From Gemmatimonadota bacterium (GTDB lineage: Bacteria > Gemmatimonadota > Gemmatimonadetes > Palauibacterales > KS3-K002): a stretch of DNA of 64,000 nucleotides. The stretch is taken from the NCBI GenBank assembly GCA_039586795.1, contig JBDHJS010000003.1, positions 146,669 through 210,668 of the forward strand. The letters are read 5' to 3'. Below are positions 3,517-47,478 of the stretch, piece after piece; positions within the stretch are counted from its first letter, which is position 1, and each line of letters begins with the position of its first letter. A model generated the notes under the pieces. It was not told the DNA's origin. It saw only the letters and a program-made list of their open reading frames with translations, and ran no database searches. Made by a program: the position numbers and the translations under genes.

Positions 3517-4581
3517 ATGAGATTGAGGGGGTCGGTAATGCTGAAGATCCCGGTTCTACTCATCACCATCCTACTCCATTCGGCAGGGATCGCATCTGCT
3601 CAGTGGTTACTGCAGAACAGTGGAACCGATGCCGAGTTCCGAGGCATCAGCGCGGCGAGTGACTCCGTCGTTTGGGCTGCCGGCCGCAACGGGACGTTTG
3701 CACGAACCGTAGATGGTGGCGCCACCTGGCGTGCGGACACAGTCCCCGGCGCAACCTCTCTCTTCTTCATCGATGTGCACGCCGTCTCTGACAGCGTGGC
3801 TTATCTTCTGGGCACGAGCTTCGATGGTGGCCTTGCCAGGATCTACAAGACGAGAGACGGCGGCGCCCGCTGGACGGAGGTCTACAGCAACGGCGCCCCC
3901 GGCGTGTTCTTCGACGGTCTGGCCTTTTGGGATTCGGAGCGCGGCATCGCGTTTAGCGATCCTGTCGATGGCGCCTTCCTGATCATCAGCACCGCCAACG
4001 GCGGAGCGACCTGGGAGACGGTTCCGCCGGAGAACGCTCCTCAGCCGCTCTCCGGCGAGGCCGGGTTCGCCGCCAGCGGCACGGCAATCACCGTCGCTCC
4101 GGGCGGTCGCGTCTGGATCGGTACCGGCGGCGCCGGATCGGCCAGGGTGCTGATGTCGAACGACTGGGGTCAGACGTGGACGGCCGCGACGACATCGCTA
4201 CCCGCCAGTGAATCCGCCGGTATCTTCGGGATCGCGTTCCGAGATCCGCAGGTCGGCGTGGCAGTCGGCGGCGATTACCAGGCGCCTAACGACTCCAGCC
4301 TTAACGTTCTTCAGACAATCGATGGCGGCCAGACCTGGACGTTGGTCAGCCGATCTCTCCCGTATGGCGTCCGCTACGGTGTGGCCTACGTCCGCGTAGG
4401 AGAGACCTGGTTTCTGGTGGCCGTGGGTCCGTCCGGTTGGGGTTATTCGACCGACGATGGTGCGACCTGGAGATACATCGACTCCCTCGGCTACAACACG
4501 GCTGGCGCCGCTCCCGGCGGCCCCGTGTGGGCGGCCGGCGTTGACGGAAGAATAGCCAAGTTCCGGCCTCCAGCTCGCTGA
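3517..4581 (+). CDS. secreted BNR/YCF48-like beta-propeller protein
   Basis: Signal peptide followed by repeated S/T-x-DGG-x-TW Asp-box motifs. The start may instead be ATG 3538. Confidence 0.85.
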   Translation: MRLRGSVMLKIPVLLITILLHSAGIASAQWLLQNSGTDAEFRGISAASDSVVWAAGRNGTFARTVDGGATWRADTVPGATSLFFIDVHAVSDSVAYLLGTSFDGGLARIYKTRDGGARWTEVYSNGAPGVFFDGLAFWDSERGIAFSDPVDGAFLIISTANGGATWETVPPENAPQPLSGEAGFAASGTAITVAPGGRVWIGTGGAGSARVLMSNDWGQTWTAATTSLPASESAGIFGIAFRDPQVGVAVGGDYQAPNDSSLNVLQTIDGGQTWTLVSRSLPYGVRYGVAYVRVGETWFLVAVGPSGWGYSTDDGATWRYIDSLGYNTAGAAPGGPVWAAGVDGRIAKFRPPAR

Positions 4582-4751
4582 GGGCACGGGCGAGAACCGG
4601 GCACGTATCTTGACCTTCTAGGCGGGGTCCCACCGGTTCGGGACCCGGAATCCCTTACCCTACATGGGGTTCACCCACTCCCCCGTTTCATAAGAATCTT
4701 GTCGTTTTGCAATCCCGTCGTGCAAAAAACCCGACGGCGCGAGGTATACCA

Positions 4752-5501
4752 ATGTCCGAGGTCAGCCATCAGTCCGAGTCCATCCGAGAGGCCATACAGC
4801 GCCTGACCGAATTTGCCGTTGAGCAAATGGAGAAGGGCGCGAACCGGGAGACGGTCAAAGGGCGCCTCATGGAACGCGGGGTTCAGGAGGATATCGCGGT
4901 CGAGATCGTCGCCAGGGCCTTCGGGTCGGCGGAGCCGGCGGCCACCGCCGTCGAGACCGCGGATACACCTCAGTCTACCGACCCGGCCATTGCGGCCGAC
5001 CTGGCTGAAGTCCCCGCAGAGGTCGCGGAGGAGGAGTTCAGTCTTCAGGCGCTGGCGCCGGCCATCGGCGGGGGTGCCGCCGGAGCGCTGATCGGCGGGA
5101 TCGTCTGGGGCCTGATCGCGAGCGCGACCGGCTACGAGATCGGCTGGGTCGCCTGGGGCGTCGGCTGGCTGGCTGGTTTCGGCGTTGTTCTGGCGGCCCG
5201 CGGCCAACGCGGAAAGCCCCTGCAGCTGGTCGCTGCCGCTGCGGCCGTGTTTGGCATATTCGTCGGCAAGTACCTGACGTTTTTCGCCGCCTTCAAGCAG
5301 TACGTCGGCGAAGAGTATGGCGCGGAGGCCGTGACCCAATTGTCCGTCTTCTCCGTCGGTGTCATGCAGTTGTTCGGATCCAGCCTTGGGCTGATGCTCA
5401 GCGGCTTCGACGCACTATGGGTGATACTCGCCGTTGCCACCGCCTGGGGGATTCCGAAAGCCAAGAGCATCGAGCTGCAACCTGCAGCCGAGACGGCCTA
5501 G
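4752..5501 (+). CDS. hypothetical membrane protein
   Basis: GAGG RBS before ATG 4752, an acidic N-terminal domain, then several Gly/Ala-rich TM helices (GYEIGWVAWGVG). Confidence 0.75.
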   Translation: MSEVSHQSESIREAIQRLTEFAVEQMEKGANRETVKGRLMERGVQEDIAVEIVARAFGSAEPAATAVETADTPQSTDPAIAADLAEVPAEVAEEEFSLQALAPAIGGGAAGALIGGIVWGLIASATGYEIGWVAWGVGWLAGFGVVLAARGQRGKPLQLVAAAAAVFGIFVGKYLTFFAAFKQYVGEEYGAEAVTQLSVFSVGVMQLFGSSLGLMLSGFDALWVILAVATAWGIPKAKSIELQPAAETA

Positions 5502-24305: not shown

Positions 24306-24379
24306 AGCGGGAGACGGGACTCGAACCCGCGACCCTCAGCTTGGAAGGCTGATGCTCTGGCCAACTGAGCTACTCCCGC
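24306..24379 (-). tRNA. tRNA-Gly(TCC)
   Basis: GCGGGAGTAGCTCAGTTGGCCAGAGCATCAGCCTTCCAAGCTGAGGGTCGCGGGTTCGAGTCCCGTCTCCCGCT, anticodon TCC. Confidence 0.96.
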
Positions 24380-24411
24380 AACACGTATCTACTCGACCAT
24401 CACCTACGACA

Positions 24412-24485
24412 TGGGGCGGGAGGGACTCGAACCCCCGACCTCTGCGATGTGAGCGCAGCGCTCTAGCCAGCTGAGCTACCGCCCC
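24412..24485 (-). tRNA. tRNA-Val(CAC)
   Basis: GGGGCGGTAGCTCAGCTGGCTAGAGCGCTGCGCTCACATCGCAGAGGTCGGGGGTTCGAGTCCCTCCCGCCCCA, anticodon CAC. Confidence 0.96.
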
Positions 24486-24529
24486 TACTGTGTTGACTAC
24501 GGCTTACTGCTTACCGTTTAACGACTTAG

Positions 24530-24602
24530 AGCGGGAGACGGGTCTCGAACCCGCGACCTCGAGCTTGGGAAGCTCGCGCTCTACCAACTGAGCTACTCCC
24601 GC
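24530..24602 (-). tRNA. tRNA-Gly(CCC)
   Basis: GCGGGAGTAGCTCAGTTGGTAGAGCGCGAGCTTCCCAAGCTCGAGGTCGCGGGTTCGAGACCCGTCTCCCGCT, anticodon CCC. Confidence 0.96.
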
Positions 24603-41891: not shown

Positions 41892-44099
41892 CTAAAACGC
41901 CTCGCGCAGCGCCGTCCTGACGATGTTCCCGACATGCGGCGTTCCCGGGGGTAGCTTCCCTGGATCTCGGAAGTCCGTGTCGAACGACCAATCGCGCCGC
42001 GGTGGGAAGTAATAAGAGAGGTTCCAAGTTCCCGTAGTTTTCTGGCTGGTGAACAGACTCACCAACGAGCCTCTGTAGCGAAACACGACCGAGCTGTTCC
42101 CGGCCCGCCAGCGCTCCAGGAATCTCGGGAAGTTCTCGATCCCCCCGCCGTAGAAATTCTCATTGCCACCTGGACAGCCCGCGCTCTCGTGGTCGCACGG
42201 CGTCGGCCAGTGGCCGGCAAGCACCGCCGCGTTGATCGTGGTTTCGCCGGCGACTCTCTCCTGCCAGTTTCCCGCCCAATTCAGGTAACTGGCGCACGGA
42301 CTACCGTTCGACGTATTGCCCTCACAGCCGGCGATATCGGGCAGGTTCTGGATGTCCTGCCAGGCCGTCGATTGGATCGTGATCCCATCCCCGATGAGCG
42401 CCGCGGGCCGCTTGACGACGGAGTTGTAGTTGCCGATCACGTAGACCGGCCATTCGGTCGCCATCGTCATCGGGTTGGGCAGACTGGTACCGTTGCGCAT
42501 CCGAACTGCCGGGTCGATCGAGGCGTCCGGGATTTGATCGAAGAGCAACTGCGTGCCGCCTGTGAGATCCGCTGGCATGCGGAACTCCACGTAGATGATT
42601 CGAGCCTCACGCTCCGACGCGCCGCCAACCCAGCCGGTCAACTGGGACACATCGATCTCCAGTATGTCTTTCAGTTCATTCTCGCGAGCGTCGTAGAATG
42701 CCGACCAGTTCCACTGGAAGATGTTGCAGGCGTCTTCTTGGGACGGCACTTCCTTTCCACCGGTCCGTTCGATCGTGACGATTGGCCACGGAGTTAGATC
42801 TAGGTTGATCAGCGAGTTAGCATCAAACAACCACTTGGACTTTCCAACAATGTCATTAACAAGCTGTGCATAGCCATCAGCCTCGATGGTGATCTCGATC
42901 TCCAGCTCTTCTACGTCATCACCCAGAAACGCCTGAAACGTGCAGCCATTCACGCCGCCGTTGAAGGTCCACTCGCCGCTATTGATCGCCAGCGTTGCGC
43001 GGTTGTCGAATTCATCGCAGGTCAGCGACGGGTGAGATGCCCTGAACGTGACCCACCCGGCGCCAGGGTACACCGGCTCCAATGCCGAGATGACGATCTC
43101 GCCTTCCACTTCGCCCGGTGGCGTGCCCGCACCACCGCACACCGCGTCCTTCGTCTGAAGATCGGTCAGGTCTACCGTGACGTACGTATCCGCCAGCCAC
43201 GCCAACTTCGCTTCCCGCTCGGAATCGCCATCCGCGTCCTCTTTCACGCGGATTAGCTCGTAGGCCGCCATCCCCTGGGGAAGCGGCAGGCGCAAAGAGT
43301 CCACGCCGAACGCATCAGTCATCACGCGACAGCTGAACTGCGTGCAGCTGCGCGCCTTGAACGCCTCGGCGCCCGGGATGGTTCGGCTGTCGAAGTCGAG
43401 AGGATTCTCTATCCCGAACGCATCGTTGATGAAGACCCCGTTGTTGACGGCGTGGAAGTCCTTCCTGTCGTGAAAGATCTTGTTCGGAGTAGTGATCGGC
43501 TCTCTATACCAGGCGTTGCCCGAACTGAGATAGATGTTCCCATTCGAATGCACGCGACCGACGAATTCCAGGGGTGGTCCGTTGGTCGCTTCAAGGTCCT
43601 CTTCGAAAAAGACACCGAACTGGAATATCGGGATCGCCTGCGCCTTCGAGCGAAGCACTACGCCCGCTACCGTCCCGTTAGCGTCCTCGACGAGCGAGTA
43701 GATGTCGAGCTTCTGGGTCAACGCGTACAGACCATTGTACGGCCCGTCGGTAATGGTCTCGACCAGAACGTCACCCTTCCTTTCAACCGCGAAGCTGTCG
43801 TAACTGAACCCTTCCAGGTTTGGAGGACTGATGGCGAGCAGTTCATCATCGTCGAGGTGACCGTCACCCAGCGCTACGAGTAGCTGCGAAAGAGCCAGCT
43901 CGCCGCCCGCTTCCGCCGCGTAGAAGGCTCGCGCGTCATGGTAATCGAGGCCCGATGAGCGAAGCGAACTCAGCGCCGACCTGACAGCACCAGCGATCAC
44001 CAGGCCCATGACCGCCAGCACGATTAGTGTCGCAACTAACGCCAGGCCGCGTGTATCATCGACCGTGCGAGTTAGGGCTTCTCTATCCTTCCATCGCAT
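41892..44099 (-). CDS. large PilX/GspK-like minor pilin
   Basis: Prepilin-like RG|LALVATLIVL without E5, AFYAAEAG motif, GRVHSNGNIY, GGIENFPRFLERW and a C-terminal PPRRDWSFDTDF...LPPGTP. Confidence 0.8.
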   Translation of the reverse strand: MRWKDREALTRTVDDTRGLALVATLIVLAVMGLVIAGAVRSALSSLRSSGLDYHDARAFYAAEAGGELALSQLLVALGDGHLDDDELLAISPPNLEGFSYDSFAVERKGDVLVETITDGPYNGLYALTQKLDIYSLVEDANGTVAGVVLRSKAQAIPIFQFGVFFEEDLEATNGPPLEFVGRVHSNGNIYLSSGNAWYREPITTPNKIFHDRKDFHAVNNGVFINDAFGIENPLDFDSRTIPGAEAFKARSCTQFSCRVMTDAFGVDSLRLPLPQGMAAYELIRVKEDADGDSEREAKLAWLADTYVTVDLTDLQTKDAVCGGAGTPPGEVEGEIVISALEPVYPGAGWVTFRASHPSLTCDEFDNRATLAINSGEWTFNGGVNGCTFQAFLGDDVEELEIEITIEADGYAQLVNDIVGKSKWLFDANSLINLDLTPWPIVTIERTGGKEVPSQEDACNIFQWNWSAFYDARENELKDILEIDVSQLTGWVGGASEREARIIYVEFRMPADLTGGTQLLFDQIPDASIDPAVRMRNGTSLPNPMTMATEWPVYVIGNYNSVVKRPAALIGDGITIQSTAWQDIQNLPDIAGCEGNTSNGSPCASYLNWAGNWQERVAGETTINAAVLAGHWPTPCDHESAGCPGGNENFYGGGIENFPRFLERWRAGNSSVVFRYRGSLVSLFTSQKTTGTWNLSYYFPPRRDWSFDTDFRDPGKLPPGTPHVGNIVRTALREAF

Positions 44100-44152
44100 C
44101 GCTCATCATCTCCGGATGGGGCCGTTCCAGCGCTCGCTCGAATACCACGGCC

Positions 44153-45121
44153 TCAGGTCCGCGCCTTTTCGTATCTCAGATTGCGCGGAGAGACCGTCCA
44201 CTGGTAGTTGCGCCTCAGAAGCTCGCCACTGTTCAGGCGCGGGTCGGCACGATCCGCGCGAAGTGTGACTCTCACCGTCACTGCCACGATGTCGTCAAAG
44301 TCGTTGCTGTCATCCGCATCAAAAGGGTCCGCCCGATCGGACTCGTCGCCGTCGGCAAATACGAAGCTGACCTGAAACTCCTCCACGCCGTAGGCCAGCA
44401 CGTGCCCCACTGGCGAACCGTCGAAGTTGAGTCTCGCCGCCCGCATCAGCTGTTCTTCATCGTCCAGATAGTACATGATCGGCTTCACGGCCTGCACGAA
44501 TGTGCTGAAGCGATCCAGCTGCAGACCACCACTCATGCTGGCCGGCTGTCGTAGAACGGTATCGATCGGCGTGAAGGTCAGCTGAAACGACGAATCGCCC
44601 GTCACGTTGATTTGCTCGACCAGTATCAGGTGCCTCTGACCCGGGATCTGCAATCGCGCCAGGTTGCCGGGCTGTAGCTCGAGCGGCGTGACGTCGGGCG
44701 GAAGCTTGGCCAGGTCCAAGCACCTGGAGCCGCACGTACCACCCGGCGGAAGCGGATTGTCGTCGCCGGCCGGCGGTATCAACGAGTGAGGCGGCGCAAC
44801 ATCCGGTTTGTATGGCACGTGTAAGATGACCAGAGTATCGCCGGTCGCACCGGGCCATACGGCAAGGCTGCCGAACGACATCGTACTGGAGATCTCGATG
44901 CCCGCTCTCTGGAGGTCATGTCGGACCGAGACGCCTATATAACGACCGTTCCGACTGAGGCTCTCTCTGATCTCACGACCGGCGAGGCTCCGCATCTCTT
45001 GGATGACGAAGGCCATGGCGGCACCCAAGACCATGACACCCAGGATCAGCGCGATCACCAACTCGATGAAGGTGAAACCATCCGACGCATAGCATCGCTT
45101 CCGCAATCGCCCGCCTGCCAC
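44153..45121 (-). CDS. PilW-like minor pilin
   Basis: G|FTFIELVIAL N-terminal methylation motif and C-terminal VTVRVTLR...VSPRNL. Confidence 0.82.
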   Translation of the reverse strand: MAGGRLRKRCYASDGFTFIELVIALILGVMVLGAAMAFVIQEMRSLAGREIRESLSRNGRYIGVSVRHDLQRAGIEISSTMSFGSLAVWPGATGDTLVILHVPYKPDVAPPHSLIPPAGDDNPLPPGGTCGSRCLDLAKLPPDVTPLELQPGNLARLQIPGQRHLILVEQINVTGDSSFQLTFTPIDTVLRQPASMSGGLQLDRFSTFVQAVKPIMYYLDDEEQLMRAARLNFDGSPVGHVLAYGVEEFQVSFVFADGDESDRADPFDADDSNDFDDIVAVTVRVTLRADRADPRLNSGELLRRNYQWTVSPRNLRYEKART

Positions 45122-45534
45122 TAGGCACCCCCCGTAAAGATGACCGTCACTAGCTCGAGGGTCCGGGTGCGCCCGAAGCCTGACGGATACACGACCTCGA
45201 CAGTCGCTCGCACAACGTCCGGCGTGCTCACCTCGGGTGTCACTACCAAGCTCTTGATGAACGCACCGTTCTCGTTCGGCTCGCCCGTTTCATCGACACG
45301 CACGGGGCTCTCGGTGGCAAGCTCGGTCGCGGGCCGCGTCTTCACCTCTTCCATGTAGGCCACGGCTATCGCAGAGGCCCGGGAACGCTCGGCCGCGTCG
45401 GTTTGCATCGAGACGATGAACGCGCTGGAACTCGACAGCGCGACGATCCCGACCGCAAGCAGAACCACAGCGACCAGCACCGACACGATGCCGAAGCCGT
45501 GTTTCAAAAGCATGAAGCTTCTCAACCGAGTCAT
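45121..45534 (-). CDS. PilV-like minor pilin
   Basis: G|FGIVSVLVAVVLLAVGIVAL. The ATG overlaps the upstream stop (ATGA). Confidence 0.78.
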   Translation of the reverse strand: MTRLRSFMLLKHGFGIVSVLVAVVLLAVGIVALSSSSAFIVSMQTDAAERSRASAIAVAYMEEVKTRPATELATESPVRVDETGEPNENGAFIKSLVVTPEVSTPDVVRATVEVVYPSGFGRTRTLELVTVIFTGGA

Positions 45535-46127
45535 TTGACCCATGTGTCTCCACTGAATCGCCATGTACGAAACGCGCTGGCACCCGAGATCGTAACGGCT
45601 GCAACGGCGTTCGGATCGTCTTCGTGCATCAGGAAAACCACACCGCCGGCGCCCTCGGGAACCACCAGCCCCCTGGCGTCGAACTCCACGAAAGCGTTCT
45701 CGATATCAATGGCTTCGGCGGTCGGGCCTCCCAGCGGGCTGGATGCGGCGGCGCCCGCACCAAACTTCACACCCTTCGGAAGTACGACACCAGGGATGCC
45801 GCTACTCGATCCCCTCCTGATCAAGCCCGATTGTCGGACCTCATCTGGAACTTCGGAGATCGATCCACTGCGGTCAGGCGAGACGTCCATGAATGCGGTG
45901 TAGAAGTCCTGAGCCTCGTAGAAGCGCACTCGCACCAAGCGTTTCGATGCGATAGCTCGCATTCGGACCTGCTCGAGATCGCGCATCAGCGATCGGGCCG
46001 CTCGGTCGACTTGCTGCATCGGGCTGAGTTTGATCGCTCGGGGCACAGCTATCGAGGTCACGACCGCAATCAGGATGATAACGACGACCATCTCGATCAG
46101 AGTGAAACCGAGCTCTCTTAGCCGCAT
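45531..46127 (-). CDS. FimT/FimU (GspH)-like minor pilin
   Basis: G|FTLIEMVVVIILI, DLEQVRMRAI and VEFDARG. Confidence 0.85.
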   Translation of the reverse strand: MRLRELGFTLIEMVVVIILIAVVTSIAVPRAIKLSPMQQVDRAARSLMRDLEQVRMRAIASKRLVRVRFYEAQDFYTAFMDVSPDRSGSISEVPDEVRQSGLIRRGSSSGIPGVVLPKGVKFGAGAAASSPLGGPTAEAIDIENAFVEFDARGLVVPEGAGGVVFLMHEDDPNAVAAVTISGASAFRTWRFSGDTWVK

Positions 46128-46243
46128 CGTGCCTCTCACTATTGGCCCGAAGGCATGACTTCGAGGGAAGACAATCGCACCGACGAAATGACGACGCCGG
46201 TCGGTCGAACCCTACCTCCGGTCGATTCTGACCGCTTGGCGGG

Positions 46244-46309
46244 TAAGTCCCAGCCGGCTAACGGTTTGGCCCTCCGCCCGCCTGTTGAGCGGGAGGACTC
46301 AGCTGGGGG
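46244..46309 (-). ncRNA. candidate structured cis-regulatory RNA in the pilin operon leader
   Basis: CCCAGC/GCTGGG closing stem, internal GTCCTCC/GGAGGGC stem, CAAA linker, small CCG/CGG hairpin and TGAGT/ACTTA pseudoknot potential. Confidence 0.5.
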
Positions 46310-46319
46310 AGTGATACCT

Positions 46320-46348
46320 AAGATGCCTGTCGCGGCTCGGAGGGTCAA
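46320..46348 (-). promoter_or_regulatory. putative sigma70 promoter of the pilin operon
   Basis: TTGACC-N17-CATCTT on the minus strand. Confidence 0.5.
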
Positions 46349-46599
46349 TGCGCAGTGTAAGCCTGGACACGCGGCGCTCCGACACTGCAATCAGAACTTG
46401 CAATCCGCCAGACCGCGCCGGGCGAAGCCTGCACGGCATACTCACCGAACTTACCCTTGTGCAATGGCTTAGGCCGACGGCCACCGATCGGCCCCGCACT
46501 TGCATGTCATTTTCGCGTCGCCCGGTAGTGTCGACTTGTGGGCACGCGGCGATTGAGACCCCTTGTCTGTTCCTCCCATCGAGCCTTGCCGGATTGTGA

Positions 46600-47478
46600 G
46601 TGCCTGTGCCTTTCATAGAATACGAAGCGCGACTATTCCGCTTGAAGGAAGGGACCAACGTCCTGGGATCGGGGGACGCGGCTACTATTTGCCTCCCGTT
46701 TAGTAGCGATTGTAGGCTGGAGATCAACGTTGACGACTTCGGGGTGTTTGCCTGGTCGCCGACCGAGGCCGAGGGCGCTGTAATCAACGGCCGCCCCCTG
46801 GAGAGCGAGCCCGTTCCGCTTTTCCACGGCGATCGCCTGCTGCTCAACGGATCGGCTCTTGTTTATATTGACGACGGTGGGGACGCCACGGCGAAGATGG
46901 ATCGCGTAGCGCCGACCGCCGCCGATTCTGCGATAGCGGAAGGGAAAGGGAAGGAAGAGATGGTCGACCCTGATAAGCTGATGCGTGTCACGCCGCCGGA
47001 GCCCGAACGCAAGCCGCTAGGGGTGCTCCGTAGGCATGACAACAACAAATCCTACTTGATTGGCAGCTCCGCTTTCCGCATCGGACGTGAGAAGCACTGC
47101 GAGATCATTCTTGCCGATCCTTCGATCTCCCGACTGCACGCAGAGATTTCCGTCCACCAGGATGAGTACACGCTACGGGTGATGGGTCGAACTGATACTC
47201 TGGTGAACGGAAAGAAGCTGACCGGGTCTCACAAGCTACGGCCAGGTGACACTATCAAGATAGGAAAGTTCGAGTTCAGTTTTGTCCGCAAACACGCCGA
47301 CGCCGCCGACGCTGAGAACCTCGTTAGACCGGACGAACTAACTCCGGTCCGCAGCGCGGCACGAGACGCGGCGACCGTTGAGTTCAAGAGGAAAAAAGCC
47401 GGTGGCAGTCGTCTACTTACCTGGCTGATTGTCGTAGTAGCAGCAGCTCTTGCCGCGGCGGTCTTCTTCGCCTCCTAA
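46600..47478 (+). CDS. tandem FHA-domain membrane-anchored protein
   Basis: Two FHA-like domains, the second with IGR...ISRLHA...TLVNG...LRPGDTIKIG, and a C-terminal TM helix. Confidence 0.85.
   Translation: MPVPFIEYEARLFRLKEGTNVLGSGDAATICLPFSSDCRLEINVDDFGVFAWSPTEAEGAVINGRPLESEPVPLFHGDRLLLNGSALVYIDDGGDATAKMDRVAPTAADSAIAEGKGKEEMVDPDKLMRVTPPEPERKPLGVLRRHDNNKSYLIGSSAFRIGREKHCEIILADPSISRLHAEISVHQDEYTLRVMGRTDTLVNGKKLTGSHKLRPGDTIKIGKFEFSFVRKHADAADAENLVRPDELTPVRSAARDAATVEFKRKKAGGSRLLTWLIVVVAAALAAAVFFAS

Follow-up and report, generated by a model that had tools for sequence, protein, structure and literature searches.

Pilus-gene expression is controlled in the 5' leader by described RNA elements, among which the c-di-GMP riboswitches of class I (GEMM, RF01051) and class II resemble the element studied here in their position in the leader of pilus genes (PMC1950547; PMC6366702; PMC6200980). 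As outlined in PMC1950547, the class I element is built from a GNRA-capped hairpin, an AAA linker and a second hairpin, often with an overlapping terminator. A second type of leader control is the Rho attenuator under alternative pairing, sRNA or protein control, represented by rpoS with DsrA, ArcZ and RprA, by SraL, by pgaA with CsrA, and by ribB (PMC12360218). The described system closest to the small RNA reported below is Pxr/PxrK/PxrR of Myxococcus, in which a sigma-54 promoter with upstream enhancer sites drives the RNA and a kinase and an NtrC-like regulator lie alongside (PMC5684412). Pxr also has long stem-loops and a terminator and is restricted to one lineage (PMC5684412; PMC5568312; PMC11928866).

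We examined the leader of a minor-pilin operon in a 64,000-nt window (the whole stretch of DNA that was analysed) from a Gemmatimonadota bacterium, and an RNA from contig C84 of the same genome, here called the C84 RNA. The leader differs from c-di-GMP-I in that its outer helix P1 encloses the hairpin P2; it has no GNRA hairpin, AAA linker or overlapping terminator, and it occurs at one locus. It resembles the Rho attenuators in being a long leader without an intrinsic terminator whose pairing could mask or expose a C-rich Rho site, and it differs from them in having no sequence relation to them and in coming from a genome where Hfq and CsrA were not found. The C84 RNA shares the Pxr features listed above. 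It differs from Pxr, described as ~111 nt with three stem-loops, in its length (269-302 nt across genomes) and its two long conserved hairpins; it is transcribed divergently from the kinase gene, whereas Pxr lies downstream of its regulator. The direct targets of Pxr are described as unconfirmed in these sources, while the C84 RNA has a conserved candidate target. The C84 RNA had no Rfam match at the gathering level, and it is by description that we set it apart from Pxr. Neither the leader nor the sRNA was described in the literature searched, which consisted mostly of non-subscription papers; the supplement of a 224-motif survey (PMC5737381), possibly bearing on novelty, was outside its scope.

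Promoter and fold of the minor-pilin leader

A preliminary description of this DNA had placed a riboswitch-like pseudoknot on the - strand, 3' of a sigma-70-type promoter. The strand and the promoter were both borne out, with -35 TTGACC at 46348-46343, a 17-nt spacer and -10 CATCTT at 46325-46320. TTGACC/CATCTT sites in this genome were most frequent at spacer 17 (62 sites, versus 7-30 at each other spacer from 12 to 22), so the consensus is credible as a promoter of this genome; it was exact in 26 of 28 orthologous leaders. From this spacing the transcription start is predicted at ~46313-46312. An RNA-seq-assembled contig of depth ~3 covers 46156-46394 across the promoter and is uninformative on start, strand and level. 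Between the end of the motif and the start codon (ATG, 46127) of an N-methyl pilin gene, the first of four genes in the - strand operon, lie ~117 nt of leader (about 115 nt had been claimed). The features of the region are as follows.

46600..47478, + strand: FHA-domain membrane protein gene, divergent from the pilin operon
46489..46503, + strand: sigma-54-type promoter GG-N10-GC facing the FHA-domain gene, found within 450 nt in 18 of 28 orthologous regions
46386..46402, no strand: conserved palindrome YGCAA-N6/7-TTGCA, resembling an enhancer-binding-protein site
46320..46348, - strand: sigma-70-type promoter of the minor-pilin operon, from spacer statistics and orthologous leaders
46300..46311, - strand: segment A, the C-rich 5' end; 46307-46300 is the 5' arm of P1 and 46311-46305 is complementary to loop 1 of the sRNA
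46273..46297, - strand: inner hairpin P2, shortened in this genome
46257..46272, - strand: variable linker containing the CAAA and CCG of the preliminary description; between-genera identity 0.30 over the last 10 nt
46249..46256, - strand: segment B, the 3' arm of P1, with segment C as alternative partner
46235..46243, - strand: segment C, pairing in cis with B and complementary to loop 2 of the sRNA
46219..46234, no strand: degenerate operator copy RGTCA-N3-TGACY, which can also form a short hairpin
45531..46127, - strand: first minor pilin, with an N-methylation motif, FimU/GspH-like
41892..45564, - strand: PilV-like, PilW-like and PilX-N genes, the rest of the operon

Four tRNA genes (- strand) also lie in the window, within 1150-1223 and 24306-24602.

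Folding with RNAfold gave the proposed helix P1 as a real helix of 8 bp rather than 6 (46307-46300 with 46256-46249), beginning ~5 nt from the predicted 5' end, and returned the inner hairpin P2 at 46297-46273. In orthologs P2 has a 5-6 bp stem and a C/U-rich loop. The small CCG/CGG hairpin suggested earlier is lost, its letters being taken up by the 8-bp P1. A small third hairpin was also considered and set aside; its registers differ between genera.

The leader is not the proposed pseudoknot. The second helix starts directly 3' of the P1 5' arm and ends directly 3' of the P1 3' arm, and would need zero-length loops across P1. A helix without a crossing loop can only replace P1 and cannot coexist with it. 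Its energy was -1.5 kcal/mol, compared to -13.6 kcal/mol for P1, and in 14 orthologs only 58.6% of its cells can pair, with two of the five pairs broken in 11 of the 14. The helix is thus neither conserved nor sterically compatible. The sequence fragments singled out in the preliminary description were likewise unconserved (GCTGAGTCC in 1 of 14 rows, GGCCAAA in 2 and ACTTA in 2), and the search pattern composed from such fragments matched this genome's locus only among all loci examined.

Taken alone, the fold of this leader was only mildly better than chance (z score -2.0 for a 70-nt and -0.9 for a 91-nt stretch), and in a shuffle test the mean z was ~-1.4 in the 14 core leaders defined below and -0.37 over all 34 leaders. 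The functional case rests on conservation.

Conservation, riboswitch tests and alternative pairing

The pilin is present in 29 of the 30 other genomes of this Gemmatimonadota family, and 28 orthologous leaders were obtained from 30 + 40 loci. A metagenome scan by promoter, blind to leader sequence, gave 71 stretches, 15 of them upstream of the pilin (three further pilin-pattern matches were false); after removal of seven duplicates or near-duplicates, eight of these leaders were kept. The total was 34 leaders, 15 with both P1 arms; since the leaders are kin, counts across them are not independent. The core alignment holds 14 of the 15 two-armed leaders, one with a long insertion being excluded. 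P1 and P2 together were paired in 98.9% of cells, and P1 had no two-sided changes in the 14 sequences. A model-fitted alignment that included diverged leaders gave four two-sided P1 changes; each is confined to one cell, three genomes supply all four, and the fitting biases them. A P1-like helix is rebuilt with different letters in two diverged genomes, and one diverged genome forms a 13-bp helix from an altered 5' arm (p ~0.03).

Over 43 between-genera pairs drawn from 12 genomes, in rows chosen for having both arms, identity was 0.99 in segment A and 0.97 in segment B; four-fold sites reached only 0.44 and the linker 0.30. The junction strand reached 0.83, and this genome's copy departs from its consensus. 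Segments A and B were retained together in four separately supported lineages of a 33-row pilin tree that excludes two genomes and two short proteins. The distance between the arms varies continuously from 43 to 84 nt with no helical phasing, which suits RNA pairing. We concluded from these sequence comparisons that A and B are under purifying selection and that the leader is a real, selected RNA. Segment B is absent from 19 of the 34 leaders. In two genomes of one genus (loci L072 and L077) a clean ~75-nt deletion has removed B, C and the operator and kept A and P2; the genus otherwise retains B.

Covariance models found the element as a single copy in each genome that has it; of the 31 genomes of the family, 12 carry it complete, or 16 with a wider model. 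In samples of the order and class outside the family the models gave only weak coding-sequence matches: three with the first model, all in one coding sequence, and two extra with the second. Thirty-five stretches matched a pattern scanned across species genomes; the nine from Gemmatimonadota were all upstream of the orthologous pilin, and the other 26 were inside long open frames with no downstream pilin. A viral collection had no match. A loose P1 pattern was also run on 301 genomes of the phylum and set aside, its matches other than the window's own appearing chance-like by eye.

The Rfam search proposed in the preliminary description was performed on the window and 20 orthologous leaders and gave no family at the gathering level. 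For c-di-GMP-I (cut-off 35 bits) there was no match in the leaders and none anywhere in this genome; such switches occur elsewhere in the family in 4 of 31 genomes. The c-di-GMP-II and c-di-AMP (ydaO) models had no match up to E 10 in the window and the 20 leaders. The best weak match, and the sole riboswitch match, was to preQ1-III (RF02680), at 15.7 bits and E 1.7 versus a gathering score of 63, and was rejected. It occurs in this genome alone among the 20 leaders and takes in the -10 box and the DNA operator. When compared with the preQ1-III riboswitch (PMC11602147; PMC11625349), the 5' strand of the pocket falls on the -10 box and thus precedes the predicted transcript, and the CAAA strand of this leader is unconserved among orthologs.

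Segment A at the 5' end of the leader and segment C, ~70 nt further on, are both C-rich, and the G-rich segment B can pair with either. The B:C helix can pair in 82.5% of cells, which is not above shuffles. Folded as the short leader, nine of 15 sequences preferred A:B and six B:C, the gap being at most 5 kcal/mol in 11 of 15; folded as the full leader, 12 of 15 preferred B:C. This apparent near-balance is read from raw energies. Predicted access to the ribosome site differed by at most 0.10 between the A:B and B:C folds in 15 of 15 leaders, and no intrinsic U-tract terminator was found in the leader. With neither a terminator nor a ribosome-site switch, the output is probably transcript survival. 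C outnumbers G over the first 50 nt of all but one of the 34 leaders, and two Rho-like genes are present in the genome (C53:69139 and C91:103086, open frames of 430 and 412 aa); Rho masking is therefore a candidate output, with rpoS, pgaA and ribB as precedents (PMC12360218).

The ligand-binding part of the earlier proposal is unsupported, given a single orthologous locus among the genomes searched and the lack of a terminator or ribosome-site switch, and the leader is probably not a riboswitch. Complementarity to a trans-encoded RNA offers a different explanation for its conserved single strands. What stands of that proposal is an undescribed cis-regulatory RNA of pilus genes, conserved, syntenic, 3' of the promoter and without an Rfam match; the pseudoknot does not.

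A candidate small RNA complementary to the leader

With at most one mismatch allowed, the operator RGTCA-N3-TGACY recurs in three groups of pilin regions. Of 23 third-paralog regions, 22 carry it ~100 bp 5' of the -24 box of their sigma-54 promoters; all 11 tandem-paralog leaders have it 3' of the promoter; and it is present in 7 of the 28 orthologous leaders. We read it as the probable site of a sigma-54 activator, marking a probable regulon. Further copies are present on contigs C23, C50, C84 and others of this genome. The intergenic region also houses a second activator system, made up of the YGCAA palindrome and the sigma-54 promoter listed above, whose probable target is the divergent FHA gene. 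In relatives, a tandem second pilin module (loci L013, L020-L023, L025, L029, L075, L078 and L081) has its own sigma-54 promoter and carries a C-like motif in the bulge or loop of a leader hairpin.

By following the operator shared with the pilin promoters, we located an unannotated non-coding RNA of ~295 nt on the + strand of contig C84 (~4505-4802; 4355-4802 with its operators). The locus has two tandem operators, a sigma-54 promoter, ~300 nt without a long open frame and a U-tract terminator. The RNA is full-length in 28 of 31 family genomes (27 of the 30 others); one more has a lone hairpin, and a search of two assemblies of 86-87% completeness did not find the RNA. Of 399 genomes outside the family, one matched the loop pattern, with one mismatch. 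The folding z of the RNA was -3.0, and it has two covarying hairpins; 14 of 66 consensus pairs showed two-sided changes (24 of 30 copies aligned). A PAS histidine kinase gene is divergent from the sRNA and adjacent to it in 28 of 30 loci, followed in this genome by a gene for an NtrC-like regulator (REC-sigma54-HTH). The two G-rich loop cores are invariant (loop 1 in 29 of 30 copies, loop 2 in 30 of 30) and predicted to be unpaired with probabilities of 0.68 and 0.96, respectively. Searches of this genome, which is 97.8% complete, found no Hfq and no CsrA. A second full copy of the sRNA is present in genome G012, and partial copies in a few genomes; in G013 (C116, L291) the loop-2 hairpin stands by itself, with other flanks and no kinase.

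In this genome, loop 1 and segment A form 7 Watson-Crick pairs (-16.6 kcal/mol), and loop 2 and segment C form 9 (-18.2 kcal/mol). With the predicted start, the segment A site would be the first ten bases of the mRNA. At least 6 pairs to loop 1 were found in the first 20 nt of 25 of 34 leaders, versus 2.4% of random windows, and at least 7 pairs to loop 2 in 15 of 34, versus 7.4%; both matches occurred in 0.13% of random windows. Nine of the 34 leaders were scored against this genome's sRNA instead of their own, matches between G-runs and C-runs are of low complexity, and the one between loop 1 and segment A was a post hoc observation. Both exact matches were present in 2 of 1700 upstream regions, this leader being one; by duplex energy it ranked only 57 of 1700. 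No sense-strand enrichment of seed matches was found genome-wide.

A C-like motif of the CCCGCC type was enriched on the sense strand of 13 of 28, 7 of 11 and 9 of 23 leaders of the three pilin paralog groups (orthologous, tandem and third; background 7-10%), and was found in 0 of 9 leaders of more distant pilins, eight of them from a sister family; this enrichment was found before the sRNA was examined. The loop-2 match itself was present in 6 of 11 tandem-paralog leaders, in 2 of 23 third-paralog leaders (no excess) and in 0 of 9 distant pilins.

Because the seeds are invariant, the leader-sRNA pairing allows no covariation test; invariant sRNA partners would explain why A and B are invariant without covarying. 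In silico, the sRNA has its own promoter, a terminator and a conserved unpaired seed, all marks of a trans-acting base-pairing sRNA (PMC5568312), and the leader carries a conserved seed complement of at least 6-8 nt.

Preferred reading and alternatives

We put at about an even chance that the leader is a target of the C84 sRNA gated by the choice between A:B and B:C pairing, a reading drawn from complementarity and conservation. In the proposed mechanism, the kinase and regulator pair would use the common operator to activate both the sRNA and the sigma-54 promoters of pilin genes. The sRNA would dock on A or C, whichever B leaves free, and could then displace B from the other. The output would probably be transcript survival, through masking or unmasking of a C-rich Rho-loading leader or through 5'-end stability; the direction of control is probably activation, by a slight preference. 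Such a feed-forward loop would align the sigma-70 operon with its sigma-54 paralogs. The full version, in which an Hfq-independent sRNA reads two sites of a bistable leader with two invariant G-rich loops, the toggle choosing the site offered, and couples a housekeeping-promoter operon to a sigma-54 two-component regulon, is tentative and somewhat doubtful. No comparable circuit in Gemmatimonadota was found in the literature searched.

If true, this reading would give, for an uncultured Gemmatimonadota family, a complete pilus circuit running from the kinase and sigma-54 activator through operator and sRNA to the target leader, and add an RNA family that Rfam lacks. It would also mean that an sRNA target can look like a riboswitch, with arms that are invariant and do not covary. 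The leader opens no new riboswitch class.

It is unlikely, on balance, that the leader works by itself, its 5'-terminal P1 stabilising the mRNA or tuning Rho loading via folding kinetics and the sRNA match arising as a by-product. The closeness of P1 to the predicted 5' end, the C-rich then G-rich order expected of hairpin arms, and the lack of a genome-wide strand bias in seed matches are in agreement with this explanation. However, a static stem should covary and beat its shuffles, and the mean z was only ~-1.4 in the 14 core leaders and -0.37 over all 34; retention of A where B is lost and the C motif in leaders of unrelated paralogs would also stay unexplained.

A ligand riboswitch without the pseudoknot, in which a second messenger would act through Rho by stabilising A:B at the junction, is improbable. 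The two alternative folds and the conserved junction strand are compatible with it, as are 13 GGDEF matches above the cut-off in this genome and the standing of pilin genes as known riboswitch targets (PMC1950547). Against these points, the element is confined to a single locus in a single family and has no terminator, the fold hardly alters ribosome-site access, this genome's own junction strand is off consensus, and ordinary c-di-GMP-I switches are used elsewhere in the family.

There is a slim chance that the repeated C-rich segments (A, the junction and C) are recognition sites of an RNA-binding protein, with B controlling access, as the repeated, strand-specific motif in several pilin leaders might suggest; but with CsrA and Hfq not found in the genome there is no candidate protein, and the exact complementarity to the sRNA loops would be left unaccounted for. 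We give a similarly small chance to the conserved blocks working as DNA, either as repressor half-sites or as initial transcribed sequence. The region does contain genuine DNA sites (promoter, palindromes and operator), and the P1 arms do not covary, yet the arm spacing has no helical phase, the motif is strand-specific and the two diverged genomes rebuild a P1-like helix from altered letters. Leader-peptide attenuation from a GTG/ATG codon atop P1 is very improbable: the codon occurs in 17 of 23 leaders and has switched between GTG and ATG three times, but it is absent in this genome, has no upstream Shine-Dalgarno sequence and opens frames of 6 to >130 codons whose changes are not synonymous.

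The C84 sRNA merits separate study regardless of its target, and the two-genome deletion that keeps A and P2 is a natural mutant for comparison.
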